Shown: positions 5,261 to 54,195 of the stretch, in pieces | How positions within the stretch are numbered: the first letter of the stretch is position 1 | How the letters are laid out: each line of letters begins with the position of its first letter | NCBI GenBank assembly: GCA_018667855.1 | Contig: JABIRL010000182.1 | Coordinates: forward strand, 5,503-69,502 | Length of the DNA stretch: 64,000 bases | Source: Rhodospirillaceae bacterium | GTDB lineage: Bacteria; Pseudomonadota; Alphaproteobacteria; GCA-2731375 | Direction: 5' to 3' | The notes under the pieces: generated by a model | What the model was told of the DNA's origin: nothing | The model's input: the letters and a program-made list of their open reading frames with translations, nothing else | The model's database searches: none | Program-made: the position numbers and the translations under genes

Positions 5261-5277
5261 GATCTATCCGGCCATCG

Positions 5278-6303: not shown

Positions 6304-6324
6304 ATTGCTCTCCCTATTAGTGGT

Positions 6325-10243: not shown

Positions 10244-10302
10244 CATGTTCGGGTTCCAGTTCTGTAAGTCAAAAAATCCAGTTTCGCGATGCCAGGGTTC
10301 AT

Positions 10303-11511: not shown

Positions 11512-11746
11512 TCTGCTGTTCACTCCGACCCAGCCGTGAAACGGGGATGTGGATATCGTTGATTTTCTGTCACGAACCGGCGCCGGTGCCGGCATCGGCG
11601 CACTATAATCAAAGCGCAGAATATCCGATAGTCGGCGGTCAAAGAACATTGACCCGGCCGGCTCAAACTGTGTCACACTATGGGCCTTGCGACATACGCG
11701 GGTACAAGTTCAACTGATTGACGGCCAATAGATGGGGAATGACCAG

Positions 11747-13099
11747 ATGACGGAAGCAGTGACCCTTGAACACTTCATGGACGGCGTCATAAAGCGCAAT
11801 CCGGGACAGCCTGAATTCCATCAGGCGGTGCACGAGGTCGCGGGCACGGTTCTGCCCTATATCGACGACAACCCCATATACCGTGAAATGCAGATCCTGG
11901 AACGCATGACGGAGCCGGACCGTGTCGTCTCCTTCCGTGTCTGCTGGGAAGATGACGAGGGCAATATCCGGGTCAATCGCGGCTGGCGGGTACAGTTCAA
12001 CAATTCCATCGGTCCCTACAAGGGCGGCTGCCGCTTTCACCCCACGGTCAATGAAAGCGTGCTGAAATTCCTCGGTTTCGAGCAGCAGTTCAAGAATTCC
12101 CTGACCGGCCTGCCCATGGGTGGCGGCAAGGGCGGGGCCAATTTCAACCCCAAGGGAAAAACCAACAATGAAGTGATGCGTTTTTGTCAGTCCTTCATGA
12201 CCGAATTGTGCCGTCATATCGGCCCCAACACCGATGTACCCGCCGGCGACATCGGCGTTGGCGCGCGCGAGATCGGCTATATGTTCGGGCAATACAAACG
12301 CCTGACCAACAAGTTCGAGGGCGTCCTGACCGGCAAGGGCCTGGAATTCGGCGGCTCGCTTATCAGGACCGAGGCGACCGGTTACGGCGCGGTCTATTTC
12401 CTGCAATGCATGACCGACAAGATCGGCGCTTCCCTTGATGGTGCCACGGTGGTGATTTCAGGGTCCGGTAATGTGGCCACGTTCGCGGCGGAAAAGGTCC
12501 GCCATTTGGGCGGCAAGGTGCTGACCCTGTCGGATTCGGGCGGTTACATCCATGACCCCGATGGCATCGACGAGGGAAAGCTCGAGTGGATCAAGGAACT
12601 GAAGAATGTACGCCGAGGCCGCATTTCCGAGTATGTGGATCAGTTTCCAGGCGCCACCTTCCATGAGGGGCGGCCCTGGGGCGTCCCCTGCGACTACGCC
12701 ATTCCTTGCGCCACCCAGAATGAAATCAGCGAGGACGAGGCCAAACTGCTGGTCAAGAACGGCTGCAAGGGCATTTCCGAAGGCGCCAACATGCCCACCG
12801 TGGTCGAGGGCATCAATGTATTCCAGGACGCCGGTATTCTATATGGCCCGTCCAAGGCCGCGAACGCAGGCGGTGTCGCCGTATCGGGCATGGAAATGAG
12901 CCAGAATTCAGCCCGTATATCGTGGAGCGAGGACGAATTGCAGAAGCTGCTGTTGAGCACTATGCAAAATATCCACAGCAGTTGTTATCAATACGGCGAA
13001 GGCAAGGGCGTCAACGGCAGTTGCGATTATTTGATGGGCGCCAACGTGGCCGGCTTCGTCAAGATCGCCGATGCCATGCTGGCCTACGGCGTACAGTAG
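11747..13099 (+). CDS. gdhA: NADP-specific glutamate dehydrogenase
   Basis: Collinear with E. coli GdhA across the whole length (KGGCRFHP, GLPMGGGKGGANFNPKGK, VPAGDIGVGAREIGYMFGQYKRL, GSGNVATFAAEK). Confidence 0.9.
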   Translation: MTEAVTLEHFMDGVIKRNPGQPEFHQAVHEVAGTVLPYIDDNPIYREMQILERMTEPDRVVSFRVCWEDDEGNIRVNRGWRVQFNNSIGPYKGGCRFHPTVNESVLKFLGFEQQFKNSLTGLPMGGGKGGANFNPKGKTNNEVMRFCQSFMTELCRHIGPNTDVPAGDIGVGAREIGYMFGQYKRLTNKFEGVLTGKGLEFGGSLIRTEATGYGAVYFLQCMTDKIGASLDGATVVISGSGNVATFAAEKVRHLGGKVLTLSDSGGYIHDPDGIDEGKLEWIKELKNVRRGRISEYVDQFPGATFHEGRPWGVPCDYAIPCATQNEISEDEAKLLVKNGCKGISEGANMPTVVEGINVFQDAGILYGPSKAANAGGVAVSGMEMSQNSARISWSEDELQKLLLSTMQNIHSSCYQYGEGKGVNGSCDYLMGANVAGFVKIADAMLAYGVQ

Positions 13100-17936: not shown

Positions 17937-18039
17937 GGAAGACGGAGGCCTCGAAACCCAGGCCGCGACGGCGGCCCGGCGCTGATGCGCCGCCCCGGTG
18001 GAGCGGTGCGTGTCCGCGCACCGGCGTGAACGACAATAG

Positions 18040-19065
18040 CTAAATCTGATCGCGCCTGGCGGACCAGATAAAGCCGTCGTACCAAAAGTGCATCAGGGAA
18101 ACTACGAGGAAGGCGGAGGTAATCCAGGCGCTGTCTTCGTGATATAGGCCCGCGACGACACCATAGGCCAGTCCGACACCAAGCAGCAGCGCCAGGGCGG
18201 CTCCGGTCGCGCCGGCCCGACCCTCGCGCCCTGCCAACCGAACAAGGGTTTTCCGCTCGGACCACCAGATCAGGGCGAAGTACTGCCAGGCATGGAAAAA
18301 ATTCATGATGAAGAAGGCCATGCCGAACGGGTTGAAGCCCCAGGCATAAATTGAACAGACGCCGGTCAGAAACAACAGCACGACCTTTTGGTACGAGATC
18401 CGATGCCCGGCCCGGGCCAGTCGCCAATAGGCGTACAGATAATAGATCAGGAAGGGAATGCCGGTGCCGATCACCAGCCAGCTCAGGATACCGCTGTTGA
18501 ATTCCACGTAGGCCGGAATTTCCGTAAAGAAGAAGGAGCCCACATCCTTGAACTCCTCGAAATCGTTGACATGATCCATCAACGTGGCGCCCGCGGCGAT
18601 GGGCCCGGCGTAGAGGTAGAAATTGAGGATGATATCCAACCGGCGTCCGACCCGCGGATCGTTACCCGCCAGCTTGTCGTAGATGCGGCCCAAACCGAAT
18701 GTTTGCAGGCTGGAATGATAAACGTCCCAGAACGTCGCCAACACCGATCCGATCACCAGGGCCCAGGCGGAATACCCCATCGCCACCAGAGCCAGCAAAG
18801 GCACGACGGTAAATCGAAATGGATACAGCTGGAATATCGCGGCGTTGCCGTGGGAGCGGAAGATGACGATGAACAGATGCGCCATGATGAAGATGGAGAT
18901 GAAAATCTCTAGCCAGTTTTCACCCTCGTATACTTCCTCGCCATTCAACGGTGTTTGTGACAGCGCCAGACCCAGGACCAGGGCGAACAGCGGTGAAAGG
19001 ATGAAGAAAACCAGATCATAGGATGGCGAAACCAGATACCGGGAGGCAAAGCGTTCCGTCTGCAT
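18040..19065 (-). CDS. Uncharacterised polytopic inner-membrane protein (about 9-10 TM, His/Trp-rich loops)
   Basis: 341 aa and very hydrophobic. Conserved-looking HAWQYF and HFWYDGFIW segments. No family assigned from sequence alone. Confidence 0.45.
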   Translation of the reverse strand: MQTERFASRYLVSPSYDLVFFILSPLFALVLGLALSQTPLNGEEVYEGENWLEIFISIFIMAHLFIVIFRSHGNAAIFQLYPFRFTVVPLLALVAMGYSAWALVIGSVLATFWDVYHSSLQTFGLGRIYDKLAGNDPRVGRRLDIILNFYLYAGPIAAGATLMDHVNDFEEFKDVGSFFFTEIPAYVEFNSGILSWLVIGTGIPFLIYYLYAYWRLARAGHRISYQKVVLLFLTGVCSIYAWGFNPFGMAFFIMNFFHAWQYFALIWWSERKTLVRLAGREGRAGATGAALALLLGVGLAYGVVAGLYHEDSAWITSAFLVVSLMHFWYDGFIWSARRDQI

Positions 19066-19079
19066 GGCGAACCCCGACC

Positions 19080-19775
19080 CTATTCCACAACAACGCGCAG
19101 TTCACCGAAGGTCTCTTGCAGATAGCCCAGCAAGGCAACAAAGAATACGGCGAGGCCCGACAATTCCATGGTTTCCTGCACAATGTTGAGCATGCCATAG
19201 ACCGGATCGGTGCCGTAAATGGAAACCCAGTGATTGACAAAAAATTCCGTGCCCAAGGCACCGCCCACATAGACCACGGCCGCCAACACGAATAGCCGCC
19301 TTGTTGGTGCCGACAACGCGCCCAGGAAGCGCCAATAGGCCACTGCCAGCACGGCCACGATGGCGCAAGCCGGAATGACCCAGGCGTAATACAGCATGCC
19401 GCCAAGGTCAAAAGTGTGGCGCAGGGGGCGATTGATCAATTCATGCAGCTGCACTGTTTCATCAATGGAGATGTAGACGAAGATCAGGGCCAGGGCGAGC
19501 CAATGACCCCGGTAGGCACCCTTTCCGGGCGGCGTCGCCAGGACAATGGCGGTCAGCAGACCCGCACAGGCCAACAATAGCGCCGAGGCATACCAATTGG
19601 GGATGTTGCATTCCATGACCATATTGAACAGGCGCACCAAGGTATCGCGTTTTGAAAAGTCAAACAGGTGATCCGCCACTTCGCTGGCAAAACCCAACAG
19701 CGCCAGGCTCGGTGTCACGATGAGGAACCACAACTTTATCCTTGCGAGCGGGATGGCGATGCGCGCCTGGCTCAT
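19080..19775 (-). CDS. Uncharacterised membrane protein (about 6 TM)
   Basis: 231 aa and hydrophobic. 15-nt gap to the downstream membrane-protein gene and 63 nt from the TadG-like gene stop on the same strand. Confidence 0.45.
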   Translation of the reverse strand: MSQARIAIPLARIKLWFLIVTPSLALLGFASEVADHLFDFSKRDTLVRLFNMVMECNIPNWYASALLLACAGLLTAIVLATPPGKGAYRGHWLALALIFVYISIDETVQLHELINRPLRHTFDLGGMLYYAWVIPACAIVAVLAVAYWRFLGALSAPTRRLFVLAAVVYVGGALGTEFFVNHWVSIYGTDPVYGMLNIVQETMELSGLAVFFVALLGYLQETFGELRVVVE

Positions 19776-19838
19776 GGCAACCTCGTGTGCTGAATAAATT
19801 TCAATTTGAACTGCAAACCCGACGGCCGGCGCGGTCGG

Positions 19839-21314
19839 CTATTGGACCAGGTGGGAGCTGGATGTAATCAGGATCGGCGTCGTGCCGGCGCTGTCACAGG
19901 ACGAATTCAGTGTGGAATTGCCGGTAAAATCAATGGTCTGGGCGATGACCTGCGTGCAGGTGGAACCGCCCGTGGTATTGCCGCCCGTGAACTCGATCGC
20001 TTCGTTGGGAAAATACAGCGCACCCGTGAAGTTGGTGGTGGAACCACCATTGAATTTGTTCTTTGTGGTCGAGGCCGCATCTTTATCCTGATAAAACACC
20101 ACGCCCGAATAATCACCGCTGGTCGGTGCCGCCAGAGTGACGATGGCGCCGCCATTGATGGTGACGGAACCCGGTGAATCGCCGTCACTGTCGGTCAAAA
20201 TGATGGTAACACCGGTACCTCCATCCACCTCCTTCAGGGTCGCGCCGCCATTGACCGAGAAATTGCCGTCGTCAATGACATAGGTGCCCGATCCCAATTC
20301 AACCGTACCGCCGGTAATTTCAAATTTACCGCAATAGGTGCCGGCGGAGAGTGTGTCGGTGCCGGAGGTATTCTTGTAATTCGTATCAATACAATTGCCT
20401 ACCGTCGGATCGGGCAAACCGCTGTACGGATCGGCGGTCGCCGAGGTGCCGGTCTCGGCCGCGCCGCAGGTCAGGTCGAACTCCGGCGATGCCGCGTCGG
20501 TACCGCCGACGATGCTGGCGCAATTTGCGTCCAGCGTGGCGCTGCCGCCCACTTCAAGGGCATCATCGTCATCGGAATTGGCGGCGACATCGCAACTATT
20601 GAAGGCCACGACGGCATTACCGCCAACGTCGATGGCGCCCTTGGCCGATGAACTGAGCGCCAGGGCGCAGGCGGTGCCGCCGCTGCCCGAACTGGTCGCC
20701 ACGGCGATGGTCTCTATATCGATGGAACTGAAACTGACAATGCCGCCGAAGGTCAAATCAAACGCATTGCCGTTGGATGCTGTTTTGCGAACCGTCACCC
20801 GGGCTGCGTTGACCGGCGTGCCGTTGGCGGTGAAAGCCCGGGTGTCTTCGTCCCAGTTTCCAACCTCCACATCCGCCGACACCAGGACATCACCATGGTC
20901 GGCCGCCGGTAGGTTCAATTCGGTGATGGCCAGGGCCCGGGATTCAGCCTCATCAGAGTCACTGGCGACCGAGGCCGCCGCCAAGGCGGCGGCATCCGCC
21001 TCCCCGCGCATCTGGGCCTGGGCCGAAAGAATGAAACCGACATCCACGGCCAGGCCGGCCAGCGCCAGCAACGGCATCACCAGCAATGCAAAGACCAGCG
21101 CCACGGCGCCGCCGCCTTCTTGACCAAATCGGCCTATCTTTCGCCACCACAAGGCGTTGGCGGCTTTTCCGCCGGCTGTTATCTGTCGTTTCACAATCAT
21201 CTGATCCATCCAAGGTTTTGACGCTTGTCCGTCCCTTAGCCCCCAGACATCAAAGAAGCCCAAATTTCGCGGTCGCACAATAATTCGTACATAGCCGCCA
21301 CGGCCCGACTGCAA
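19839..21314 (-). CDS. TadG-like (Flp-pilus-assembly TadE/G-domain) large pseudopilin-like protein
   Basis: The N-terminal segment GGGAVALVFALLVMPLLALAGLAVDVGF is the TadE/TadG N-terminal helix. The remainder is Gly/Thr/Ser/Asp-rich beta-rich sequence. Real start is probably internal (MIVKRQ ... or later). Confidence 0.55.
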   Translation of the reverse strand: MQSGRGGYVRIIVRPRNLGFFDVWGLRDGQASKPWMDQMIVKRQITAGGKAANALWWRKIGRFGQEGGGAVALVFALLVMPLLALAGLAVDVGFILSAQAQMRGEADAAALAAASVASDSDEAESRALAITELNLPAADHGDVLVSADVEVGNWDEDTRAFTANGTPVNAARVTVRKTASNGNAFDLTFGGIVSFSSIDIETIAVATSSGSGGTACALALSSSAKGAIDVGGNAVVAFNSCDVAANSDDDDALEVGGSATLDANCASIVGGTDAASPEFDLTCGAAETGTSATADPYSGLPDPTVGNCIDTNYKNTSGTDTLSAGTYCGKFEITGGTVELGSGTYVIDDGNFSVNGGATLKEVDGGTGVTIILTDSDGDSPGSVTINGGAIVTLAAPTSGDYSGVVFYQDKDAASTTKNKFNGGSTTNFTGALYFPNEAIEFTGGNTTGGSTCTQVIAQTIDFTGNSTLNSSCDSAGTTPILITSSSHLVQ

Positions 21315-22528: not shown

Positions 22529-23029
22529 TCAATCTCCCACATAGGCCTGTTCATGGGCGGCATTCATGGTAATCGACATGAAGCCATAGGTATGTAGAAG
22601 CCCGCTGAACAGGGCCTTGTACGGCACCGACGCCACGACTTTTATGACCTCGTAGCTATTGCCGCCGGCGCTGTATGTTGATGTGGTTACCGCCAGGCTC
22701 GACGCGCCGTCGGACCAGCCCGGAACCACAAAATCGCCCGAGCCGTCCGCCGTGCCGGTCTTCACCAAATTTTCGATCGTGGCTTGCGAACCACCCGACA
22801 GCGGCAGGCTGGAGCGGGCCGCCAACATAGCGCCAACCCGTAGACTTTTGTCCAACTCGTTGGATTGATTGATGTAGTAGCCAAAATCAATGATGCCCAC
22901 CATGACCAGCGCCAGCAACGGCGCGAACAGGGCGAATTCCACCGCCGCGATGGCACGGCGACATTTCAACGCCGCGACCGCGTTGCCCGAAACCTTAGTC
23001 AATAAGCTGAACATTGACATGTACGTCAT
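22529..23029 (-). CDS. TadE-like pilus-assembly protein
   Basis: AIAAVEFALFAPLLALVMVGIIDFGYYINQ N-terminal TadE motif. Overlaps the upstream gene's stop by ~35 nt, so the start may be internal. Confidence 0.6.
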   Translation of the reverse strand: MTYMSMFSLLTKVSGNAVAALKCRRAIAAVEFALFAPLLALVMVGIIDFGYYINQSNELDKSLRVGAMLAARSSLPLSGGSQATIENLVKTGTADGSGDFVVPGWSDGASSLAVTTSTYSAGGNSYEVIKVVASVPYKALFSGLLHTYGFMSITMNAAHEQAYVGD

Positions 23030-24383
23030 CCGAATACTGTTGCAACAAGGGTCCGATAACTTCCGTGTAGGTATCCGCCAGGGTACCCGCGACTTCCTCG
23101 GTCAGGAAAACTTCCACGTAGCGGCCATAGGTCGGATAGTCGCCGCTGCCCTGTACGCCAAGCGCGGTACAATTCAATACGGCGATTTTCATGACCCGCC
23201 GTTTGATTTCCGATGAGGCCGTGGACGAAGGCACCCCCGCCGCCGGAATGGAAGCTCCGGACGGCGTCACGGTGGTATAGGTGCCGGGCTTGGTAATGCC
23301 GTCCGTGGGATAAATGGTTTTGTTGTCATACCGGTAAAACGTTTCACCCAGTTCATACAGAAACACCTGGTAACGGGTGTAGTTGACCAGATCGGCGGGT
23401 TCGGTTTCGCCGGAATGATTGGTCGACCAATAGGACACCGGGTCCCAATCACCGTTGCCGATGATGGTGCTGCCGGACATGTCGGAATCCCGGCCATAGC
23501 CCATGATATTTTGGGATGGATATTTCGGGTTCTTGGTACCGGAATCCATGCGCGCATTGATGCCGTTGATGGCCTGCTGGGTTTGCGAGCCGGGCGATGT
23601 GGTGACGATGGAGGTGTAACAAAGGCCCGGATCGTTAGCCAGGGCATCACCAACGCTGGCCGCACCGCAATTACCCGATGATGGGCACAGAAGGCCGAAA
23701 TTGCCCGGCGCCAGGGTGCCCCCGCCCGGGCCGGTCTTGGTCAATAACTGGCGGCCGGCATTGTCGGCATCCAGCAGATCGTCGCTAGGGTTGCCGCCCT
23801 CGGCCGGATTGCAGGCCATAAAGGGTGGAGCGGCGCAGACAATGGGCTCGATACCCGCCCGTGCCGTACCTTCGAGGGTAAATTGATCCGCCACCACGCC
23901 GCTGGCAATGGTCTCCAGCACCGGCGCCAGGAATATGGAAATTGTCCGGGGGACCAAGGTCACCGCGACCATAACGGCTTCATCATCGACCGTCGTGACC
24001 AGCGGCGTCGGGTCGGTATCGTCGTAAAACACTATGCTTTGCACGGTGAAGGCGCCGGATGGATCGGTCAGGGAGGTGGTATTGGTAATGGCGTTGGAAG
24101 CCGCCGCGGTGCCCCGGTTGATGGCGCCGGACTGGCCGTCAAGCTGTGCGGCGGCCGACAGGGCCGCGGAATCGGCAGCGTTTTGCATTTGCGAGCGAAG
24201 CACCACGACCCGGCCGATATCCAGGGCCAAGACACCGCCCGAAAGCGCCAGGGTTCCGGCGAAAGCGACATAAATAGCCGTCGCGCCGCTGCGGTCCTTC
24301 ATCATGGATGTCAGTGCCGACCAAATGCGCGCCACATATCCTTGACGTGGTTTCCTGCCCGGTATTACCTCGGCCCTCGTCAT
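22995..24383 (-). CDS. TadG-like pilus-assembly protein (large pseudopilin)
   Basis: N-terminal GATAIYVAFAGTLALSGGVLALDIGRVVVLRSQMQNAADSAALSAA matches the TadG family N-terminus. 462 aa, Gly/Thr/Ser-rich. Confidence 0.6.
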   Translation of the reverse strand: MTRAEVIPGRKPRQGYVARIWSALTSMMKDRSGATAIYVAFAGTLALSGGVLALDIGRVVVLRSQMQNAADSAALSAAAQLDGQSGAINRGTAAASNAITNTTSLTDPSGAFTVQSIVFYDDTDPTPLVTTVDDEAVMVAVTLVPRTISIFLAPVLETIASGVVADQFTLEGTARAGIEPIVCAAPPFMACNPAEGGNPSDDLLDADNAGRQLLTKTGPGGGTLAPGNFGLLCPSSGNCGAASVGDALANDPGLCYTSIVTTSPGSQTQQAINGINARMDSGTKNPKYPSQNIMGYGRDSDMSGSTIIGNGDWDPVSYWSTNHSGETEPADLVNYTRYQVFLYELGETFYRYDNKTIYPTDGITKPGTYTTVTPSGASIPAAGVPSSTASSEIKRRVMKIAVLNCTALGVQGSGDYPTYGRYVEVFLTEEVAGTLADTYTEVIGPLLQQYSDDVHVNVQLID

Positions 24384-31825: not shown

Positions 31826-32500
31826 ATGCTATTGGCCATCGAAGGTATTGACGGCGCCGGCAAGGGAACTCTGTGTGGAGAGTTATTGGCCCTGGCGGAG
31901 GCAGCCGGCGTTCGGGCGGCGGCGCTGTCTTTCCCCCGTTACGAGGAAACCCGTTTTTCCGAACTGGTGGGCGCCTACCTGCGCGGCGACATGGGCGCCA
32001 TTGATCAGGTTCCCGTTCGCTACGCCGCCCTGTTGTTCGGCGGCGACCGCTTTGAAAGCCGCGGTAAACTGATGACGTTGATCGCCGATCATGACCTGAT
32101 CATCCTGGATCGCTATGTTTCCTCCAACATCGCTTACAACGCCGCCAAGCTTTCCGGAGTTGCGCGGGCCGAGCTGATCGCCTGGATCGAACAACTGGAA
32201 TTTGGCTTGTTCGATCTGCCCCGCCCGGATCTAACCTTACTGTTGGCGACCTCCACCCAGCTGGCGGACCGATTGGTCGGCGAAAAGGATGCCCGCAGCT
32301 ACACCGAACAGACCCGCGATATGCACGAAGCCGACCGTGACTATCTGACCATCGTCACGGAAGTCTATGGCGATCTGGCCAGGTCGGGCGGCCAGGCCTG
32401 GCTGACCGTTGATCCCCTGGACGACAACGGCAAACTGCGGCCGCCGTCGGATATTGCGGCGGCGATCTGGGCGGATGCCAGATTTTCCGAACTAAGGTAG
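31826..32500 (+). CDS. Thymidylate (dTMP) kinase family P-loop kinase, likely a paralogue
   Basis: LAIEGIDGAGKGT P-loop, LDRYVSSNIAY (DRY motif) and a lid region, at Tmk-like length. Confidence 0.55.
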   Translation: MLLAIEGIDGAGKGTLCGELLALAEAAGVRAAALSFPRYEETRFSELVGAYLRGDMGAIDQVPVRYAALLFGGDRFESRGKLMTLIADHDLIILDRYVSSNIAYNAAKLSGVARAELIAWIEQLEFGLFDLPRPDLTLLLATSTQLADRLVGEKDARSYTEQTRDMHEADRDYLTIVTEVYGDLARSGGQAWLTVDPLDDNGKLRPPSDIAAAIWADARFSELR

Positions 32501-32833
32501 TTCCAGACGCACCACCAGGGCGGCGGAGGCGATCACCGCCACGTCACCCAAGGCTTCATCGGGCACGTCCAGGCCGCCCTTCACCACATTCACGGTGACG
32601 GTACCGTAAGGCAGAGCCGCCTGTACCGCCGCCTTGTCCACCGCGTCGGGTTTCTGTACGCCGATGGTGACGTCCACATACATACCGTCGGCGCCGACGC
32701 CCAGGGTCCGCAGCATGGTCAGCGAGGAATGGTGCAGGGCATCATCGACGGCCCGACGGGCGGCCTTGGTATAATCACCGCCGTGCAGATCGTTGCCGGC
32801 ACCCATTTCCAAAATAACGCGTTTCTTGGTCAT
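32492..32833 (-). CDS. Small conserved hypothetical protein, possibly Lin0512-type family; tandem paralogue A
   Basis: 113 aa, MTKKRVILEMGAGNDLHGGDYTKAARRAVDDALHHSSL ... About 45% identical to the next gene. Confidence 0.4.
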   Translation of the reverse strand: MTKKRVILEMGAGNDLHGGDYTKAARRAVDDALHHSSLTMLRTLGVGADGMYVDVTIGVQKPDAVDKAAVQAALPYGTVTVNVVKGGLDVPDEALGDVAVIASAALVVRLELP

Positions 32834-32845
32834 GATGAACTCTCC

Positions 32846-33187
32846 CTACGCCACATCCAGATACACAACGGCGGCGGCGTGGGCCATGATCGTTCCATCC
32901 GTGCCGGCCTCATTGGGTATTTGCAAACCGCCTTCTACGACCTCCACCGTGCCGGTACCGTGGGGCAGCACGGCGAGCACTTGCTCCTTGTCCACCTGAT
33001 CCGGTTGCGGGACGCCGATGGTCACGGCCACCTGCATGGAATCCACATCCAGGTCCAGGGCGTGGGCCACGGTCAGGGAATTGTGCCATAGCGCATCCCG
33101 CAGGGCGCGGACCGCCGCTTTGGTCGAATCCGTGCCACGAATATCGGTACCCATGCCGATCTCCAGCACCATACGTTTCATTGTCAT
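32846..33187 (-). CDS. Small conserved hypothetical protein; tandem paralogue B
   Basis: MTMKRMVLEIGMGTDIRGTDSTKAAVRALRDALWHNSL ... with the same architecture as paralogue A. Confidence 0.4.
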   Translation of the reverse strand: MTMKRMVLEIGMGTDIRGTDSTKAAVRALRDALWHNSLTVAHALDLDVDSMQVAVTIGVPQPDQVDKEQVLAVLPHGTGTVEVVEGGLQIPNEAGTDGTIMAHAAAVVYLDVA

Positions 33188-33278
33188 GTTAAAATCGTCT
33201 CCCGTGAAATCTATCTGCATATGCATTAGTGTTTCGTGTCGGGGAAGTCCAGGCCGGCGTCGGAAACGGAGAGGAAGC

Positions 33279-34094
33279 ATGGCTGATCTGAGAATATTTT
33301 CTTACATGCCGAACCCGCGTATCTGGAAGGCGACCATCGCTGCCCGCCTTTGCGGTGTCGAGCTGGACCTGCGCGGCGCCAAACCAGGGCAATTGGCAGA
33401 CTGGCTGTGGGATTTCGACGCCCGCCCGCTGACAGCGGAAGACCGGGCCAAGCAGGGTGATTTGGCGCGGCAAAGCCGAACCGGATTTTCGGGACAGCTG
33501 TTCAAGACCGATGCCTTCCTGGCGGCGCATCCCTTCGGCACGGTGCCGGCGGCCTTCAGCCCGGATGGCGAGGTCGGCATATTCGAATCCAACAGCATCG
33601 CCCGCACCGTGGCACGGCTGCGCCGCCATGGCCCCGACCTTTATGGCGATGATCCCTATGCCGCCGCCCGCATCGACAGCTTCCTTGATGTCAGTCTGGT
33701 GTTCGCGCGGGATGGCCAAGTTTATCTGCTGTCCCTGAACAACGGTTCCGTGGATGAGGGTATTCACGGCAACGCGGCGGCGGCCTATGAAACATACATG
33801 AACGGGATGGAGGCTGCCCTTTCGCCGGATCACGCCTATTTAGTAGGTGATGATCTGACCCTGGCGGATATCGTCTTCGTGGCGGAACTATGCTCCTTCG
33901 CCCGGGAAGCGGCACATCTGGAGCGCCTGGCGGAGCGAAACCTGCCGACGATATTCAAGTTCGATGCACCCGCATCTCACCCACGGGCCATGGCCCATTT
34001 CGAAAGACTTTGCCAACATCCCGCATTCGTGCCGGACATCGAGCCATTTATGGAAAAGTTAGAGGCGCGGCGACTGAAATCCGCAACCGGCTAG
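33279..34094 (+). CDS. Glutathione S-transferase-like protein
   Basis: 271 aa from MADLRIF, with a thioredoxin-like N-domain and helical C-domain pattern. GGAGAGGAAG RBS. Confidence 0.55.
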   Translation: MADLRIFSYMPNPRIWKATIAARLCGVELDLRGAKPGQLADWLWDFDARPLTAEDRAKQGDLARQSRTGFSGQLFKTDAFLAAHPFGTVPAAFSPDGEVGIFESNSIARTVARLRRHGPDLYGDDPYAAARIDSFLDVSLVFARDGQVYLLSLNNGSVDEGIHGNAAAAYETYMNGMEAALSPDHAYLVGDDLTLADIVFVAELCSFAREAAHLERLAERNLPTIFKFDAPASHPRAMAHFERLCQHPAFVPDIEPFMEKLEARRLKSATG

Positions 34095-34098
34095 GCGC

Positions 34099-34374
34099 CT
34101 AATGCCGTGCCTGGGTGGGCGGCGTTTCGTCGGCCAGCTCCAGATCATCCTCGGCCGTCATGGCGCCGGCGGATGCGGCGGCGAGAATTTCCCCGGCCGT
34201 GGCGCCAGACGAGGTCGCGGCATAGGCGGCGAATTCAAGCAAGGTGAGGGCCAGACATTTAGGACAAATGTTTTCCCGCGCCATGACTGTCATCAAGCCA
34301 TTGCCAACCGCATCGTCGATCAGACCGCGGATTTCCTCTTCGTATTCGTCGGCATGTTTGAAGTCATCATCCAT
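34099..34374 (-). CDS. Small acidic hypothetical protein
   Basis: 91 aa, Asp/Glu-rich, with a CPKC pair. No family recognised. Confidence 0.3.
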   Translation of the reverse strand: MDDDFKHADEYEEEIRGLIDDAVGNGLMTVMARENICPKCLALTLLEFAAYAATSSGATAGEILAAASAGAMTAEDDLELADETPPTQARH

Positions 34375-34547
34375 ATTCGCCTCAACACCGTTTAGAGCAA
34401 CCCGCGGTCAATTGGCTTCAATTGACTGCGGATAAGTTGCTCTATCTCAAAGGTTTTAGCGCATGGCCGCGCGTTCAATTGTACCCGACATGCGCTAGAT
34501 CGGAATGAATTCCGATTTGCCGTCCTTCATAGGCCCAAACGAAACCA

Positions 34548-34573
34548 GCCGAAACCGATTTCTCGGCTTCGGC
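34548..34573 (-). terminator. Possible terminator hairpin downstream of the cytochrome/beta-barrel operon
   Basis: gccgaa ... ttcggc inverted repeat with a nested ccga/tcgg stem, 30 nt past the barrel-gene stop. The U-tract is weak. Confidence 0.3.
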
Positions 34574-34600: not shown

Positions 34601-36124
34601 CTAAAACTGAACCATAATTTCAGCCCGCGCGCCGGAGCCATTATCCCGGCTTTCCAGATATGAGACAAAGGCATCAAGTTGCAGTTGCACATGCTGACCA
34701 ATGGCTTGTTGGAATTGTACGGTCAGGGCCGCGGCATCGGTACCGACGCCATCGTCTTCGAACAGGTTGCGGGTATTGTCCTTCAAACCGGCCAGCTCGA
34801 TCACCAGATTACGCCGGTGGTTGTCCCAAAACGCCTGATAGCCAATGGCGATGCCGGCGGCCTGGGTGTTGAAGCTGCTCAACTCGGACAAATGGTTGCC
34901 CAGGCTGGGCGATGCGAACGAGATCCCCAAGGGCGCCAACGGGCCGCCCACCACCGGTTCCCGGCTGACCTGGGTGTAGCGGTCAAAGCCATAGAAGGGA
35001 TTGACGTACACCACGTCGTCCGAAGAATGAGGCGTCCACGAAATCTCGGCCGAGACCAGAACGCCATCGGCCACCAGGGCCGTGTCCGTATCCCGGGCAA
35101 AGGATGCATTGATCCGATAGGCGGTATTGAAACTGGCCGACCGGCTCCACGGCGTCCAGGCCCGTTGCGAGGCGGACAGCCCGGCCCAGAAGCCGTCGCC
35201 GCCCGTGGTGTCATCACTGTCGTCATCGACCGCGATAAAATCCAGGCCCCATGTGGTGGTCGGGTCATCCGCCTGCAGGAACAGACCATACAGGCCGCCC
35301 GGCCGGTTCAACCGTTGCCGGTTCGACGGGCCGCCCCGATCGATCGAGCCCCAGGCATAAACGCCGGTAGCCCGGATATTGGAAAACCCCGGCGCATGCA
35401 TATTGTTGCGCACGATGCCAACCGAATCCAAAAAGTCATTGATCATGATGCCTTCTTGGAAATGGATCCGCTGCCGCCCGAAGGCGTAGCCGAAATCAAT
35501 GAATTTGGTACCCTTGGGATCCAGAATCGGGAACATGGATCCGAAGTCGCCGTCACAAAACGCCGTGCGCACGAAGGTGCCGGCCTCCGAACGCCCGCCT
35601 TCCTCGGCCTGGTGGGATTCCCAGCTATATCGCGTGAAGTTAGTGAAACGGTTCTTATCCAACGGCGCCACGCCAATGATACATTTGTCGGAAGTGGTCA
35701 AATTCAGGTTGGCGAAGATGTCCAGCCGGGTCGCTAATTCGGTGTTCCGCCCCACGGGACCCACGGATTCATAAGTCTGCATGGCCACGCGCCAGGTGCC
35801 AAAGCCCCACAGACAAGGGGTCCAGACCGCGCCGGTCGGTAATTTCACGCCCTGGGGAAGATTGCCGTTGCCAAGGAATTTGCAGCCCAATTCCAAAATC
35901 AACTCCGGCCGGTCAGGCGGAATGACGTAAGGCACCGGTTTGTCAGACAACCGCGGCACCGGCGTTGTTTCGCCCAAGGGGTACAATCCCCCCAGCAGTC
36001 CCTTGGCGTGAGCCGTTGGGGCCGCGCCAAAAGTCAACACGACCGCCGCAGTTAGGAACGCGGCTTGAACATAGTTTCGGATCCGGCCATGCCGTCCAAG
36101 TCGCTCTTTTTTCATCGGTGCCAT
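34601..36124 (-). CDS. Outer-membrane beta-barrel protein (porin-like), co-operonic with the multiheme cytochrome
   Basis: Sec signal peptide (AAFLTAAVVLTFGAAPTAHA). About 480 aa of alternating amphipathic beta-strand pattern rich in Gly/Tyr/Asn/Asp/Thr. C-terminal ... RAEIMVQF ends in an aromatic residue as in OMP barrels. GGAGAGG RBS before MAPMKK. Confidence 0.5.
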   Translation of the reverse strand: MAPMKKERLGRHGRIRNYVQAAFLTAAVVLTFGAAPTAHAKGLLGGLYPLGETTPVPRLSDKPVPYVIPPDRPELILELGCKFLGNGNLPQGVKLPTGAVWTPCLWGFGTWRVAMQTYESVGPVGRNTELATRLDIFANLNLTTSDKCIIGVAPLDKNRFTNFTRYSWESHQAEEGGRSEAGTFVRTAFCDGDFGSMFPILDPKGTKFIDFGYAFGRQRIHFQEGIMINDFLDSVGIVRNNMHAPGFSNIRATGVYAWGSIDRGGPSNRQRLNRPGGLYGLFLQADDPTTTWGLDFIAVDDDSDDTTGGDGFWAGLSASQRAWTPWSRSASFNTAYRINASFARDTDTALVADGVLVSAEISWTPHSSDDVVYVNPFYGFDRYTQVSREPVVGGPLAPLGISFASPSLGNHLSELSSFNTQAAGIAIGYQAFWDNHRRNLVIELAGLKDNTRNLFEDDGVGTDAAALTVQFQQAIGQHVQLQLDAFVSYLESRDNGSGARAEIMVQF

Positions 36125-36217
36125 CTTTAGCTCGCCTCTCCGATTCGCCGATCTGTATTTCGCATATCTATTCGCCATTCCCGCTTGAGGGCCAATTCGA
36201 CCTGTCCGCCTTGCCGC

Positions 36218-38281
36218 TTACTTGACATCGATGGATATGGTTTCCTCGTAAAGCACCTCACGGCCCGCGACCACCGCGTTGGCCGCCGCGCGCGGGCTGA
36301 TGCCGTAATCAAAACCGACCACCTGGATGGTGCTGATCAGATTGATGGGAAACATCTGTGCCAATAATTCGACCTTGGCTTTGTATGGTCCCTTGCCCGT
36401 CAGCGCGCTGCCCGGAATTTCGTATTTTGCGATACGATGACCAAGCGGCTCGATACCTTTTCGGTGGTTTCTCTCGACCGTGGATTCGCCCGTCAAAACC
36501 AATGACAACCGCGTCGGCCGCAGGAAAGGCAGCGCAGTTGTCGAATAGGGAATGGTCACCGTCCGTTCCCGCTCGCCCCCGCGCACGCTTTGCACCAGGA
36601 AGCGCGATTGCAAGTTGAACAACTGGGTATCCAGCGGCAATTCGCCGGCATGCACGAATGCCGATTCATTGTCGCGGACGTCACCATTGGCATCGGTATC
36701 GCCGGACTGGAATACCACCTTGCCATCCGCATCCATCACGGTGATCCGGATCCAGACCAGGCGTTCGCCGGTAAAGCCCGTCGGGGTATTATGCCCGGTC
36801 GTGATATTGGAAACCTTGGCCTGAATATCGATGCCGTTTCCGTTCGCCCTGGTCGCCTTGACGTCGCTCATGAAATAACCGTTGCGCAAAACTTCCAGAC
36901 GCAGCGTGCGTACGTAAGCCAGACGCTTCAGCTGATAGTCAATAATTTCCCGGCCATCATACCGGGCATCGATGGATTCCCATGCCTTTGGGAATTTCAT
37001 GCCGGCAGGCACATTATCCTCGAACTTATCTGTGCCCCAGCCGGCCGCCACATCAAAGGTCAACCATTCCGACAAGGTCGCGAGTTGTTGCGCCTCCGCA
37101 TTGTGGGGAAAGATGCCGGGGGGCAGCAGTGAATAATCGGGGCCGGCCATGATGTGATTGGTCAGCTTCCGCGATTTGGTGGGAACACCGCCCACGACCG
37201 CCGCCGGACCTTCATGATAGCCCGAAACGATGCCCTGCACCTTGCCCATGTGGCAATCCTGGCAGGTTATCCCTTCCGCCGCCGCAGGCGAGTCCCGATA
37301 TTCGCTGAAGGCTTCTTCCAGACGGAAGCCGTTCAATAACGTCACATCGTGGCAGGTGCCGCAGAAAGTGGAAGATGAAATTTCCTTGAATTCAATGGCC
37401 TCCGTATGGATCTTACGGCCCGGCTCATCCGCCTTGGTGACCACCCGGTATTCATTTCGATTGGCCAGGACGCGTTTCAATTCCTTGTCGCCGGCGGGAC
37501 CATAGACGGGCTGCAGCAAATCGCCCTCGACCAGGGCCACCCGGCCGGACGCCTTATTATAGATATTCGCCACTCTGTGGCAGACGATGCATGTGATGCC
37601 TTCACGCGACGTGGGATGGCGTTCCAGATTGGAAACCCCAACCGGTTCTTCCATGTTCATACCAACCTGATTATGACAGCGGATGCAAAAATCGCCGTTG
37701 GTGCCGTTCACATTCAGGTTGATGAAATTTTGCAAAGCCATATAGGCCGGGCTCAATTGCGCATATGAATGTTGCGAAACCGCCCATTCCTCGAAATGGC
37801 GGGGATGACATGTGCCGCAGGTTGTCGCGGAAGGATATCGGCTCTCGGCAAACAAAGCGGCATGCTCCTTGCCGGCCTTGGTCAACGGCTTGCCGGTTGC
37901 CTCTGTTTCCTTTTTCTCTTCGTCGTCGTCGTCGTCATCCTTCAGCAGATTGTCGTCGTCGTCATCATCATCGTCATCCTTCCCCAACAGATCGTCATCG
38001 TCCTTTTTCTTGGCCTGCGCCAAGAGCAGTGGTTGGGACATCGCCGGCGCGGCCCCAATGATGTCAGTGGAGATGTCAGTGGAGATGTTGGCGGAGATCT
38101 CGGCGGCTCCGATTACGAGGGGCGATGCCATGCCCGCACCCGCCGCCGAAGCCGTGTTCAAAGACAGGGGCGTGAACAATAGTCCGCCCAGCACCACGCC
38201 GAGCGCCGCAGCGCCCCCGCTAATGCTGAATAACTCGCCATGGATTTCAATTTTCCGCGTCATGGTCATTCGCCCCATCAC
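36218..38281 (-). CDS. Pentaheme c-type cytochrome with an N-terminal signal/anchor, a poly-Asp/Lys low-complexity linker and a ~330-aa non-heme C-terminal domain
   Basis: Five CxxCH motifs (CGTCH, CIRCH, CIVCH, CGTCH, CQDCH) within about 200 aa. Acidic tract KKKDDDDLLGKDDDDDDDDDNLLKDDDDDDEEKKE. Hydrophobic N-terminal segment. Confidence 0.75.
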   Translation of the reverse strand: MMGRMTMTRKIEIHGELFSISGGAAALGVVLGGLLFTPLSLNTASAAGAGMASPLVIGAAEISANISTDISTDIIGAAPAMSQPLLLAQAKKKDDDDLLGKDDDDDDDDDNLLKDDDDDDEEKKETEATGKPLTKAGKEHAALFAESRYPSATTCGTCHPRHFEEWAVSQHSYAQLSPAYMALQNFINLNVNGTNGDFCIRCHNQVGMNMEEPVGVSNLERHPTSREGITCIVCHRVANIYNKASGRVALVEGDLLQPVYGPAGDKELKRVLANRNEYRVVTKADEPGRKIHTEAIEFKEISSSTFCGTCHDVTLLNGFRLEEAFSEYRDSPAAAEGITCQDCHMGKVQGIVSGYHEGPAAVVGGVPTKSRKLTNHIMAGPDYSLLPPGIFPHNAEAQQLATLSEWLTFDVAAGWGTDKFEDNVPAGMKFPKAWESIDARYDGREIIDYQLKRLAYVRTLRLEVLRNGYFMSDVKATRANGNGIDIQAKVSNITTGHNTPTGFTGERLVWIRITVMDADGKVVFQSGDTDANGDVRDNESAFVHAGELPLDTQLFNLQSRFLVQSVRGGERERTVTIPYSTTALPFLRPTRLSLVLTGESTVERNHRKGIEPLGHRIAKYEIPGSALTGKGPYKAKVELLAQMFPINLISTIQVVGFDYGISPRAAANAVVAGREVLYEETISIDVK

Positions 38282-51596: not shown

Positions 51597-52588
51597 TGCT
51601 CATCACTGGACCTGACATGAACGAAATCTCCGACCCCAATCAACCCCATGGCCCGCGCGGCGGCGGCGCCAAAACGGAAGCGGAAGGCGGCGGCTTTCTC
51701 AACTGGCTGTCTGGTCTGTTGCGCGGCGGCGGCGATGCGGACCTGCGGGAAAGCATTGAAGAAGTCATCGACGAACACGAGGCCTCACCCAACAGCCTAA
51801 ACCCGGAACAGCGGGAAATGCTGATGAACATCATCAGCTTCGGCGAGTTGGAAGTAGATGACGTCATGGTGCCGCGAACTGATATCGTCGCCCTGGAGGC
51901 CGGCGCCAGCCCGGCCGATGTGGTCAGCACTTTTCGCCAGGCGCATCATTCGCGACTACCCGTCTTCCGCGAAACCCTGGATGACATTGCCGGTTTCGTT
52001 CATATCAAGGACGTGGTTGATCATTGGGGCCGGGACGAAGAACTTTCCCTGGCGCGGATTTTGCGTGAGTTGCTGGTGGTGCCGCCCTCGATGCCGATCC
52101 TGGATCTGTTGGCCCGCATGCGGGCGACCCGCATCCATATGGCTGTGGTGGTGGATGAATACGGGGGCACGGACGGTCTCGTCACGATTGAAGATATCGT
52201 CGAGGAGATTGTCGGCGAAATTGAAGATGAACATGACAAGGACGATGGCCCAACGCTGGAGAAACTTCCCGATGGCAGTATCGACGCCGATGGCCGCGCC
52301 GAGATTGAGGATTTGGAAGAAATTCTGGCCGTTGATCTGTTGCCTGACGAAGCCGACGAGGACATCGATACTCTGGGTGGCCTGGTATTTGCGATGTTGG
52401 GCAGGGTGCCACGGGTCGGCGAAGTGATCAGCCATCCGGTCGGTATCAATTTCGAAATCGTCGATGCTGATTTGCGCCGGGTCAAACGCTTGCTGGTTCG
52501 CCCCGGCGCACCGCTGGCAGCGGATGGGGACGGGAACGGGAACGGGGATGATGAGAACAGCAATCCCGCCTCGGATGCCGGCGGCTGA
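51596..52588 (+). CDS. corC: CorC/HlyC-family protein (two CBS domains + CorC_HlyC transporter-associated domain)
   Basis: The CBS pair (DVMVPRTDIVAL ... ; HMAVVVDEYGGTDGLVTIEDIVEEIVGEIEDE) and C-terminal CorC domain are read from the protein. Has a Gly/Asp/Asn-rich tail. Start could be 51617 (MNEISD). Confidence 0.8.
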   Translation: MLITGPDMNEISDPNQPHGPRGGGAKTEAEGGGFLNWLSGLLRGGGDADLRESIEEVIDEHEASPNSLNPEQREMLMNIISFGELEVDDVMVPRTDIVALEAGASPADVVSTFRQAHHSRLPVFRETLDDIAGFVHIKDVVDHWGRDEELSLARILRELLVVPPSMPILDLLARMRATRIHMAVVVDEYGGTDGLVTIEDIVEEIVGEIEDEHDKDDGPTLEKLPDGSIDADGRAEIEDLEEILAVDLLPDEADEDIDTLGGLVFAMLGRVPRVGEVISHPVGINFEIVDADLRRVKRLLVRPGAPLAADGDGNGNGDDENSNPASDAGG

Positions 52589-52589
52589 T

Positions 52590-52620
52590 AAGCGTCCGGG
52601 CGGCTATCCCGGCTTTCTTA
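52590..52620 (+). terminator. Weak hairpin plus T-rich tract between corC and lnt (possible attenuator)
   Basis: ccggg-cggctat-cccgg followed by ctttctta. Confidence 0.25.
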
Positions 52621-52623
52621 TCA

Positions 52624-54195
52624 ATGTTTAATGCTGCCTTCTGCTTTCGGATTTTGGCCGCCATTGTCTTTGGCGGCCTCGCCGCCCTGGCCCTGGCGCC
52701 ACTCTACCTCTGGCCACTGATGGGCTTGGGCTACGGCGGTCTGTTTTGGCTGGTGACGGGTTCGCGAGGCTGGCGTTCGGCTTTTGCCTTCGGCTGGGGC
52801 TTTGGTCTCGGCTATTTCCTGGTCGGTCTGCACTGGATCGGCCACGCCTTCATGGTCGATGCGGCCCGATTTGCATGGATGATGCCGTTTGCCTTGTTCG
52901 CCCTGGCGGCTGGGCTGGGATTGTTCCCTGGCCTGGCGGCTGCTCTGACACGGCGGTTTTCACCACCGGGTATCGGACGTCTTTTGGCGTTCGCCTTATT
53001 CTGGGGAACCACGGAATGGTTGCGGGGGTCGTTGCTGACCGGGTTTCCCTGGCTTTTGTCGGGCCATGTCTGGGCCGCCAGCATTTCAAGTCTGCAGGCG
53101 GCCGCTTATCTTGGCGCTTCGGGTCTGGGTCTACTGGCGGTCCTGGCCGCGGCCGCCCCGGCCCTGATCCTGACGGCGCCGAGGGGGCGACGTCGGATTG
53201 CGATAGGGGCCAATGCCGTTGTTTTTTTCGTTATTGCCTTGATCCTGATCCTCTCCCATTTGCGTCTTCAGGGAGCAATCGTAACCATGCACCCGGACGT
53301 CAGGCTGCGTCTGGTTCAGGCCGGTATCCCACAAGCGGATAAATGGCGGCCTGAACTGCGCGACCGGCATCTGGCCCGGTATTTGCGGTTAAGCCTAGGC
53401 GACGATGCCACGGGTGACCGGCCCCGTTTCAGTCATCTTATTTGGCCGGAAACCGCGACACCATTTTTTCTGGCCCACGACCCGCTGCGACGGGGCGCCA
53501 TCGCACAATCCCTGCCGGGGGGAACTGTTTTGATCACCGGATCGCCGCACCGCGCTGATACGGGGAACAATGTCCGGAAACTGCACAACAGCATCTTGGC
53601 GCTAACCGACGCCGGCGCGACCACAACGGTCTATAACAAGTCACATTTGGTGCCATTTGGTGAATATCTGCCCCTGCGCGCGGTCCTCAGCCGCCTGGGC
53701 CTTGATAAATTTGCCCATGGTGCCGTGGATTTTTCACCCGGGACAGGAGCAAAGGTCGCAACAGTGGAAAATCTGCCGCCCTTTCGCCCCTTGATTTGTT
53801 ACGAGATCATATTCCCGCGGGAAATTTCAATTCCCGGCGATGGTCCGGAACCGGAATGGTTGTTGAATGTGACCAACGACGCCTGGTTCGGAGAGAATTT
53901 CGGACCCTTGCAGCATCTTGACATCGCGCGCCTGCGGGCAGTCGAATTTGGTCTTCCGGTGGTTCGTGCAGCGAATACGGGCATTTCGGCCATTATCGAC
54001 CCGTTTGGTCGGATTATGCGGCAATTGCCATTAGCTACGGCTGGTGTAATCGATGGTGGTCTGCCAAATGCACTGCCAAAAACGCTGTATGGACGCTTCG
54101 GCGACTGGGTTTTTTCAATCTTTTGTTTGTTGCTCGGGGGGCTATTACTTTTGTCATATTTTTGTTGCAAAAGTCGAGCGGTGGCGAGGCTTTAA
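52624..54195 (+). CDS. lnt: Apolipoprotein N-acyltransferase
   Basis: N-terminal polytopic domain followed by the CN-hydrolase (nitrilase-like) domain (ICYEIIFP catalytic Cys). Conserved position after corC. Confidence 0.85.
   Translation: MFNAAFCFRILAAIVFGGLAALALAPLYLWPLMGLGYGGLFWLVTGSRGWRSAFAFGWGFGLGYFLVGLHWIGHAFMVDAARFAWMMPFALFALAAGLGLFPGLAAALTRRFSPPGIGRLLAFALFWGTTEWLRGSLLTGFPWLLSGHVWAASISSLQAAAYLGASGLGLLAVLAAAAPALILTAPRGRRRIAIGANAVVFFVIALILILSHLRLQGAIVTMHPDVRLRLVQAGIPQADKWRPELRDRHLARYLRLSLGDDATGDRPRFSHLIWPETATPFFLAHDPLRRGAIAQSLPGGTVLITGSPHRADTGNNVRKLHNSILALTDAGATTTVYNKSHLVPFGEYLPLRAVLSRLGLDKFAHGAVDFSPGTGAKVATVENLPPFRPLICYEIIFPREISIPGDGPEPEWLLNVTNDAWFGENFGPLQHLDIARLRAVEFGLPVVRAANTGISAIIDPFGRIMRQLPLATAGVIDGGLPNALPKTLYGRFGDWVFSIFCLLLGGLLLLSYFCCKSRAVARL

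Follow-up and report, generated by a model that had tools for sequence, protein, structure and literature searches.

A probable stand-alone ptdAB pair, encoding a pentaheme cytochrome and an outer-membrane beta-barrel, in a Rhodospirillaceae bacterium

In the ptdABCDEFG gene cluster, ptdA and ptdB encode a cytochrome and a barrel that were named as components of a presumed porin-cytochrome complex of unknown function, possibly serving extracellular electron transfer (bioRxiv 10.1101/2023.11.21.568154). The same study located the cluster in Alphaproteobacteria of the order UBA11136 from marine oxygen-deficient zones, in Nitrospirales and in other groups, on scaffolds that were truncated; in one of its metagenome-assembled genomes (MAGs), a third ptd gene follows ptdB. 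It cited the protein of PDB entry 5ZE8 as a relative of PtdA and noted an assignment to COG3303 (NrfA). No follow-up work on Ptd was found in the literature searched. Here, we describe two minus-strand genes in 64,000 nucleotides of a Rhodospirillaceae bacterium (assembly GCA_018667855.1, contig JABIRL010000182.1, positions 5,503 to 69,502; this whole stretch is hereafter the window). Judging from their sequences and those of their relatives, these are very probably the genes ptdA and ptdB, which form the pair nearest the outer membrane in the Ptd ('penta/tetra/deca-heme') cluster.

Several other described systems resemble this pair in part. Cyc2 of Fe(II) oxidisers is a fused monoheme-porin, with a small monoheme domain and a 16-strand barrel. 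In MtrCAB, MtoAB and PioAB, a multiheme gene adjoins the gene for an outer-membrane barrel, and full ptd clusters share with them a decaheme protein; to house the decaheme MtrA, MtrB needs a sheath of 26 strands (PMC7198977). In Geobacter sulfurreducens, the extHIJKL cluster, with the barrel ExtI, was earlier classed as an outer-membrane conduit (PMC6148476). Its ExtKL component (GSU2937-2936) has since been described as MccSep, a periplasmic polysulfide reductase that is defined by cysteine ligation of heme 2 (through C239) and by selenocysteine or cysteine as the catalytic residue (U325) (bioRxiv 10.1101/2025.11.18.688581). ExtKL resembles PtdA in combining a five-heme helical cap with an Ig-like beta-sandwich stem and in being clustered with an outer-membrane barrel, although ExtI was described with 21 transmembrane segments, and neither a rhodanese (ExtH) nor ExtJ is encoded in the window. 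The structure in 5ZE8 is that of the low-potential pentaheme cytochrome c552 (LPC) of Thermochromatium tepidum. By sequence, PtdA belongs with LPC, ExtKL and the cable-bacteria proteins in an LPC/pentaheme cytochrome (PHC) superfamily, a family concept that has been set out together with the relationship of PHC proteins to the AvECN nanowire (PMC11976967).

Identity and conservation of the gene pair

The first-pass annotation of the window, which was made from the letters alone, had described an open reading frame (ORF) of 687 codons with five CxxCH motifs and a barrel ORF on the same strand. Both proved to be real and to lie on the minus strand (Table 1). The pair had also been presented as undescribed, which does not hold, as the two genes had already been named ptdAB and proposed to form a porin-cytochrome complex in the preprint cited above. 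The product of ptdA is 100% identical to a protein in the public record, P0121 ('cytochrome C [Rhodospirillaceae bacterium]', assembly GCA_018661265.1).

PtdA and PtdB each have hundreds of homologs, at 39-93% identity, and homologs of both occur in MAGs of Alphaproteobacteria, Nitrospinota, Nitrospirota, Omnitrophota and Methylococcales. Clustering at 50% leaves 773 representatives of the PtdB family, and species genomes with the barrel number at least 455, the nitrite oxidisers Nitrospina and Nitrospira among them. When loci were collected with the barrel as seed, 77 of 80 had a ptdA homolog (52-93% identity) directly upstream in the same orientation, and in the remaining three the barrel was within approximately 250 nt of a contig edge. 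Loci seeded with the cytochrome showed ptdA-ptdB adjacency in all five cases. Chance adjacency of an unrelated cytochrome and porin is extremely improbable, being refuted by this synteny across phyla (77/80 and 5/5) and by the gene fusion described below. In these comparisons, the coupling of PtdA to PtdB is obligate. The porin-cytochrome module put forward in the first-pass annotation therefore stands as far as strict co-conservation is concerned, mostly with further multiheme cytochromes and membrane redox proteins beside it, and its role as a transmembrane conduit is a hypothesis.

Clustering of the ORFs in these loci revealed five more conserved partners of the pair: a membrane-anchored FAD/NAD/2Fe-2S reductase (FNR plus 2Fe-2S; PtdC-type), a c554-like tetraheme protein (PtdD-type), a cNMP-binding 4Fe-4S protein (PtdE-type), a small membrane protein (PtdF-type) and a multiheme (decaheme) protein of about 700 aa (PtdG-type). 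We identify the genes in the window as ptdAB because the gene sets of their homologs match the published PtdA-G one to one, and because both analyses arrive at 5ZE8 as the relative of PtdA. The features that characterise the first two Ptd proteins are also present, with a beta-sandwich at the C-terminal side of the five CxxCH motifs in PtdA, and an outer-membrane barrel, PtdB, encoded directly downstream.

The window copy differs from the published cluster in that it has no PtdC-G, whereas homologs elsewhere have them as described. At least three of ptdC-G adjoin the pair in 43 of the 76 loci in which both genes were clustered, and orthologs of PtdB at 41-77% identity do have ptdC-G (loci L004, L084 and L087). 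In contrast, tblastn with all members of the PtdC-G clusters found no homolog of these proteins in the 64-kb window. The window copy is thus a stand-alone ptdAB variant, a form defined here by at least 7 kb on each side without ptdC-G and found at five loci, namely the window, L001, L006, L018 and L067. Among the best 120 of 4446 PtdE matches, none was on the megabase-scale contigs with a stand-alone ptdAB, a negative of little weight; the two PtdE matches named 'Rhodospirillaceae' come from MAGs other than GCA_018661265.1.

Some further observations concern the distribution and integrity of ptd genes. The PtdE family (query L004:1815-3593; P0241-P0360) is far larger than that of PtdB, with 4446 matches at E<=1e-30, and its named matches include Burkholderiaceae, Usitatibacter, Planctomycetes, Poribacteria and Chthoniobacterales; an inner Ptd module without ptdAB may exist in some organisms. 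In one of the five cytochrome-seeded loci, ptdB is split by an IS1595 transposase (L082:12183-14870). In L085:10001-18773, a transposase breaks ptdA, beside which there is another ptdAB pair that is intact. Two other loci, L007 and L017, have two ptdAB pairs each.

PtdA, PtdB and their natural fusion

PtdA is a Sec-exported protein of approximately 60 kDa, which consists of a signal peptide, a disordered acidic tether (LAQ...DDLL), a helical domain with five hemes and, at the C-terminus, a beta-sandwich. Its CxxCH motifs number exactly five and its cysteines exactly 10. The motifs span 190 residues, in agreement with the clustering within 200 residues noted in the first-pass annotation, and all five are invariant in an alignment of 41 PtdA sequences. 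The long non-heme C-terminal part noted at the same time (aa ~401-687) is indeed present and conserved. No cysteine outside the heme motifs is present in PtdA of the window or in 61 of 64 homologs, and ptdA has no in-frame UGA.

The only significant solved relative of PtdA was 5ZE8 (phmmer E 5e-6, profile E 3.7e-11, Foldseek E 4.8e-5). Two stretches of PtdA align with it, the heme domain and the Ig-like domain, and the latter includes a GH..PTG motif. The homology is distant: LPC has 435 aa, only the first three heme motifs align, and PtdA differs in its much larger C-terminal domain, its EF-hand-like loop and its long N-terminal tether. The motif GHNTPTG in the beta-sandwich was found in all 118 database homologs and in 61 of 62 locus copies, with PHAMPTG as its counterpart in 5ZE8, and may provide a heme ligand or a functional histidine from the non-heme domain. 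The segment DTDANGDVRDNE (aa 528-539) matches the 12-residue pattern of an EF-hand Ca2+ loop, which 5ZE8 lacks. Its D-x-D-x-N-G-D..D core does not vary across the 41 aligned sequences, and 57 of 118 homologs have the strict pattern, compared to 1 of 1075 background ORFs.

Matches of PtdA to Pfam and NCBIfam were to generic multiheme models only, and comparison with described families, which the first-pass annotation had called for, placed it outside NrfA, HAO and Mtr. Membership of the NrfA and octaheme families was rejected on the scores (Cytochrom_C552, 10.6 versus 24.1 bits; octaheme_Shew, 16.5 versus 375 bits) and on the lack of CxxCK; matches to HAO had E > 0.4. Membership of MccSep/ExtKL was likewise rejected, as NF040886, although still the best NCBIfam match, scored 30.4 bits against a cut-off of 250, and neither a non-motif cysteine nor an in-frame UGA was found. 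MtrA/MtrB (with MtoAB and PioAB) was excluded because PtdA has five hemes rather than ten and PtdB does not have 26 strands, and Cyc2 because PtdB has no CxxCH in the barrel polypeptide.

Conservation among the Ptd proteins is highest in PtdA, which had a median pairwise identity of 63% in 325 locus pairs from 26 complete clusters; in these same pairs, the value was 49% for PtdB, 49% for PtdD and 33.5% for PtdG.

The AlphaFold model of PtdB, built on an alignment of 50 sequences, is a beta-barrel with a mean predicted local distance difference test (pLDDT) score of 79 and a predicted template modelling score of 0.75. The first-pass annotation of this protein as a barrel with a signal peptide (...APTAHA/KG, with the slash at the cleavage site) and a C-terminus in VQF (...IMVQF) was borne out. 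The model has 19 DSSP strand segments of at least five residues, and the strand number is given as 18-20. On this model, PtdB appears to fall in the fold class of 18-stranded substrate channels, far from MtrB. The signal peptide region is modelled as a helix (model residues 12-32). A C-terminal F is found in at least 90% of PtdB homologs, and 17 invariant charged residues lie inside the predicted strands, suggesting a conserved charged lumen. The N-terminal extension of about 60 aa contains the densest invariant residues of the protein (11 of 59), yet the model shows it as coil, at low pLDDT. PtdB has four cysteines and no CxxCH.

In sequence, PtdB belongs to a compact orphan family of barrels. 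It had no match in Pfam, NCBIfam or PDB sequences, an exhaustive profile search returned family members only, and none of 50 members of the family had a Pfam match. Identity to the 18-stranded channels OprD/Occ, AlgE, MOMP, ChiP and maltoporin was 6-13%, and PtdB differs from them in its conserved N-terminal extension and its obligate cytochrome partner.

A natural fusion of the two proteins provides further information on their arrangement. P0478, of 1098 aa, was called identically in two assemblies (L088:8001-11297 and L089:1030-4326) and belongs to an organism with 72% GC. It carries the PtdA core with its five hemes (~550 aa), followed by a Pro/Ala/acidic linker that contains no signal-peptide remnant and leads straight into the conserved N-terminal extension of PtdB. 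Like Cyc2, it is a single cytochrome-barrel polypeptide, but it contains a full five-heme PtdA rather than a monoheme domain. Downstream of it are a tandem PtdD-like octaheme gene and a PtdG-like decaheme gene, with no PtdC, PtdE or PtdF, and the Ptd system is therefore modular.

Two PtdB homologs, P0361 and P0365, have N-terminal SPOR (peptidoglycan-binding) domains, which scored above the Pfam cut-off, at the position where PtdA is fused in P0478. The N-terminus of PtdB is therefore predicted to be periplasmic, and the fused PtdA would be attached on the periplasmic side. Other extra N-terminal domains in barrels of this family are Calx-beta in P0383 and CarboxypepD_reg in P0427. P0451 (1018 aa) combines FHA and FAD_binding_6 domains with a PtdB-like segment of barrel (aa 52-410), and this protein is either a fusion of PtdB and PtdC types or an artefact of gene calling.

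The unfused PtdA proteins (P0121-P0240 and loci that include L010, L012, L014, L016, L021, L027 and L080) begin in one of two nearly exclusive forms: a canonical lipobox, seen in Nitrospinaceae, or a Sec signal with a low-complexity linker. The linker form has LAQ[AS]K and one to eight acidic [DE][DE]LL repeats, a pattern found in 61 of 90 non-lipoprotein homologs. PtdA from the window has no lipobox cysteine, and the fused PtdA of P0478 has neither the lipobox nor the LAQ/DDLL linker. From these sequences, we infer that lipid anchor, acidic linker and fusion may be three alternative ways of holding PtdA at PtdB or the outer membrane.

Possible roles of the pair

We tentatively favour, as something close to an even call, a reading in which PtdA stays in the periplasm as a pentaheme redox protein and docks beneath PtdB, a dedicated channel for solutes. 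Depending on the lineage, a lipid anchor, an acidic tether or a fusion would keep PtdA at the inner mouth of PtdB. The partner in its electron exchange would be a small solute or a metal chelate, which would traverse the outer membrane by way of the charged lumen of PtdB; what crosses would be this solute, and not the cytochrome. In complete clusters, electrons would pass from cytoplasmic NAD(P)H through PtdC, PtdE and PtdF to periplasmic PtdG and PtdD and then to PtdA, and a donor chain that is fed by NAD(P)H implies a reductive direction. In this genome, with ptdAB alone at the locus, general periplasmic carriers would be the source of electrons. A channel is preferred to a sheath because the sheath MtrB needs 26 strands and because charged residues are invariant in the strands of PtdB, and PtdA is taken as the functional end because its identity is the highest among the Ptd proteins. 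A bolder form of this proposal is that PtdAB is a new minimal outer-membrane redox module, in which an 18-stranded channel feeds an external solute or metal chelate to the docked pentaheme, either alone or wired to NAD(P)H; we consider it possible but doubtful that all of this holds. Candidate substrates, which are speculative, would be complexes of Fe(III) or Mn(III) with ligands, iodate, or an oxyanion of nitrogen or sulfur.

Several points weigh against a channel-fed redox protein. The AlphaFold model of PtdA (residues 130-687, 41-sequence alignment) had a pLDDT of 53, and its confident part consists of the C-terminal DSSP strands; it is too poor for inference of heme ligands or an active site and was used for strands and the fold search. 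PtdA has eight conserved histidines outside the motifs, so each of the five hemes could have bis-His ligation, like those of a pure electron carrier, and neither CxxCK nor a cysteine outside the heme motifs is present in PtdA as a sign of an active site. Small barrels of the Cyc2 type are able to take part in electron transfer, and the order of passenger, linker and barrel is also the layout of autotransporters, which makes surface display conceivable. Finally, about 14 further hemes, in PtdD and PtdG, are associated with the pair, which is typical of extracellular electron transfer systems.

Such considerations keep in play a serious rival, about which we remain sceptical, namely a true porin-cytochrome conduit, in which PtdA, or a partner such as PtdG or PtdD, inserts into PtdB and electrons cross the outer membrane in either direction, with Fe, Mn or other acceptors on the outside. 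This was the proposal of the authors who named ptd (bioRxiv 10.1101/2023.11.21.568154), and the conduit idea in the first-pass annotation matches it, being reasonable and not novel. The strict synteny of cytochrome and barrel, the fusion in P0478, the presence of tetraheme, decaheme and membrane redox module beside the pair in 43 of 76 loci, and the lipoprotein form of PtdA in Nitrospinaceae, which is often found in outer-membrane cytochromes, all fit a conduit. It is harder to reconcile with the apparent position of PtdB in the 18-strand substrate-channel class, far from MtrB, and the modelled structure leans away from an Mtr-like sheath. PtdA, moreover, is a two-domain globular protein of about 550 aa that appears to be attached at the periplasmic end of PtdB, and the pair is alone here and in at least four other loci, with no partner cytochrome within 7-10 kb. 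The ExtHIJKL system provides a precedent, in that it was formerly classed as a conduit and encodes a periplasmic enzyme.

The autotransporter-like order of domains in the fusion, the long disordered N-terminal linker of PtdA and the relationship of the PHC family to the archaeal AvECN nanowire (PMC11976967) would also suit a PtdB that acts as an export or display pore for PtdA or its tether, with PtdA as a surface cytochrome or polymer. We consider this unlikely, since a folded, heme-loaded cytochrome would hardly pass through an 18-strand barrel, the SPOR-bearing homologs indicate that N-terminal additions remain periplasmic, and no secretion-system genes are conserved near the pair. Still less probable, to the point of being nearly dismissed, is that PtdA is a divergent NrfA, HAO, MccA, octaheme tetrathionate reductase or MccSep and PtdB a general porin. 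The published COG3303 (NrfA) assignment, weak MccA (E 0.0025) and HAO matches around the first heme motif, and ExtKL as the best NCBIfam match point in that direction, whereas all family matches are far under their cut-offs (ExtKL, 30 versus 250 bits), there is no CxxCK and no cysteine or selenocysteine outside the heme motifs, genes such as those for NrfH and NrfB are not in the window, and PtdB is specific to PtdA, so it is not a general porin. None of the situations that the first-pass annotation had listed as contrary to a cytochrome-porin module, namely the synteny of an ordinary porin, a known reductase with its partners, or a lack of co-conservation, was found. The favoured reading of a pentaheme protein docked under a solute channel concerns a pair that is a stand-alone member of a named, functionally uncharacterised family.

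Gene limits, neighbourhood and significance

The public gene call for ptdA starts at M7, six codons past the GTG, and gives a protein of 681 aa. The N-terminus MGRMTMT(R/Q)K is kept among close relatives, and the true start likely lies somewhere in the first seven codons. For ptdB, a start at M19 is favoured because the public call is 507 aa and because GGAGAGG, a Shine-Dalgarno-like sequence, lies approximately 11 nt ahead of this internal ATG (nt 36124). The first-pass annotation was therefore right about a barrel of about 500 aa, but with a start at M19 the spacer is 93 nt, not 39. The position of the hairpin downstream of ptdB fits the end of a two-gene operon, while the counts of terminator and promoter sites in the region were not above chance. 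The upstream regions of ptdA from the window and from nine relatives contained no conserved motif for FNR/Crp, NnrR, Fur, Irr or RirA; matches were limited to those with two mismatches or to degenerate patterns.

Table 1. Positions of ptdA, ptdB and their features in the window (a slash marks the signal peptide cleavage site)
Feature	Position	Strand	Remarks
ptdA, longest ORF; exported pentaheme c-type cytochrome	36218..38281	-	687 codons from GTG
PtdA signal peptide, read from sequence	38144..38281	-	aa 1-46, ...NTASA/AG; cleavage motif A-S-A/A
PtdA low-complexity N-terminal tether	37865..38143	-	aa 47-139
PtdA PLLLAQAKKK, then acidic D-D-L-L repeats	37916-38032	-	aa 84-122
PtdA five-heme domain	37082..37864	-	aa 140-400; aligns to 5ZE8 heme domain
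PtdA CxxCH motifs	37805-37819, 37673-37687, 37577-37591, 37349-37363, 37250-37264	-	aa 155, 199, 231, 307, 340
PtdA C-terminal beta-sandwich-containing domain	36221..37081	-	aa 401-687; DSSP strands, 5ZE8 Ig-like match
PtdA GHNTPTG motif	36776-36796	-	aa 496-502
PtdA EF-hand-like loop	36665-36700	-	DTDANGDVRDNE, aa 528-539
ptdA-ptdB intergenic spacer	36125..36217	-	93 nt if ptdB starts at M19
ptdB, outer-membrane beta-barrel	34601..36124	-	507 aa from M19; longest ORF 525 codons, to 36178
PtdB signal peptide	36005..36124	-	aa 19-58 of 525-aa ORF, ...APTAHA/KG
PtdB conserved non-barrel N-terminal extension	35816..36004	-	GLYPLGET...PRLSD.P...PDRP.L.LE.G..FLG...
PtdB barrel proper	34604..35815	-	DSSP strands; beta-signal ...EIMVQF at end
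Terminator-like hairpin	34547..34568	-	~33 nt past ptdB stop codon; consensus scan

Ordinary chromosomal genes flank the pair. On one flank are genes for an amidase, a cell-wall enzyme and a nitroreductase, followed by tsaB, rimI, a tusA-like gene, mucR, fur, miaB, phoH, 7TM-HD, corC, lnt and metK. On the other are a GST-like gene, two Lin0512-family genes, tmk, genes for an acyl-CoA dehydrogenase and an amidohydrolase, and assorted catabolic genes. The first-pass annotation had called this an accessory neighbourhood, a description at odds with the housekeeping block tsaB-rimI-fur-miaB-phoH-corC-lnt-metK and with the host-like base composition, as GC and GC3 (GC content at third codon positions) of ptdA and ptdB are within the range of host genes. 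The flanks (91-aa ORF, Lin0512 and tmk) are syntenic in the two closest relatives, L001 and L002. These two findings argue against recent horizontal transfer of ptdAB. The 64-kb window encodes no further cytochromes and no NrfH- or NrfB-like partners.

Other features of the window were recorded in passing. The 91-aa ORF (34099-34374, minus strand), just downstream of ptdB past the hairpin, is acidic, has no family match and has conserved counterparts in the two closest relatives alone (L001, 78%; L002, 88%). The two Lin0512-family genes (32492-33280, minus strand) are in tandem between the GST-like gene and tmk, and both are in the public record. Two long ORFs had no Pfam match at E<=1e-5, one of 523 aa (5011-6582, plus strand) and one of 341 aa (18040-19065, minus strand); the latter adjoins TadG-like Flp-pilus genes (19839-21314 and 22995-24383). 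Excursions of AT-skew were observed at 10001-12000 (+0.18), 18001-20000 (+0.23), 52001-54000 (-0.19) and 60001-62000 (+0.17), whereas every other 2-kb segment stayed inside about +/-0.08.

What is new here relative to the published description of ptd is the probable placement of PtdA on the periplasmic side, its three alternative tethers, the modelled 18-strand channel class of PtdB and the finding that PtdA is the most constrained protein of the system. Whether PtdAB is a trans-membrane wire or a channel-fed enzyme decides the process in which it would take part, extracellular metal cycling in the former case and transformation of soluble nitrogen, sulfur or halogen compounds in the latter. 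Since ptdAB can exist as two genes without the rest of the cluster, it is a minimal unit to express and assay. If the pair is indeed a minimal redox module, its task would be a marine redox reaction, performed by nitrite oxidisers and by Alphaproteobacteria of oxygen-deficient zones.

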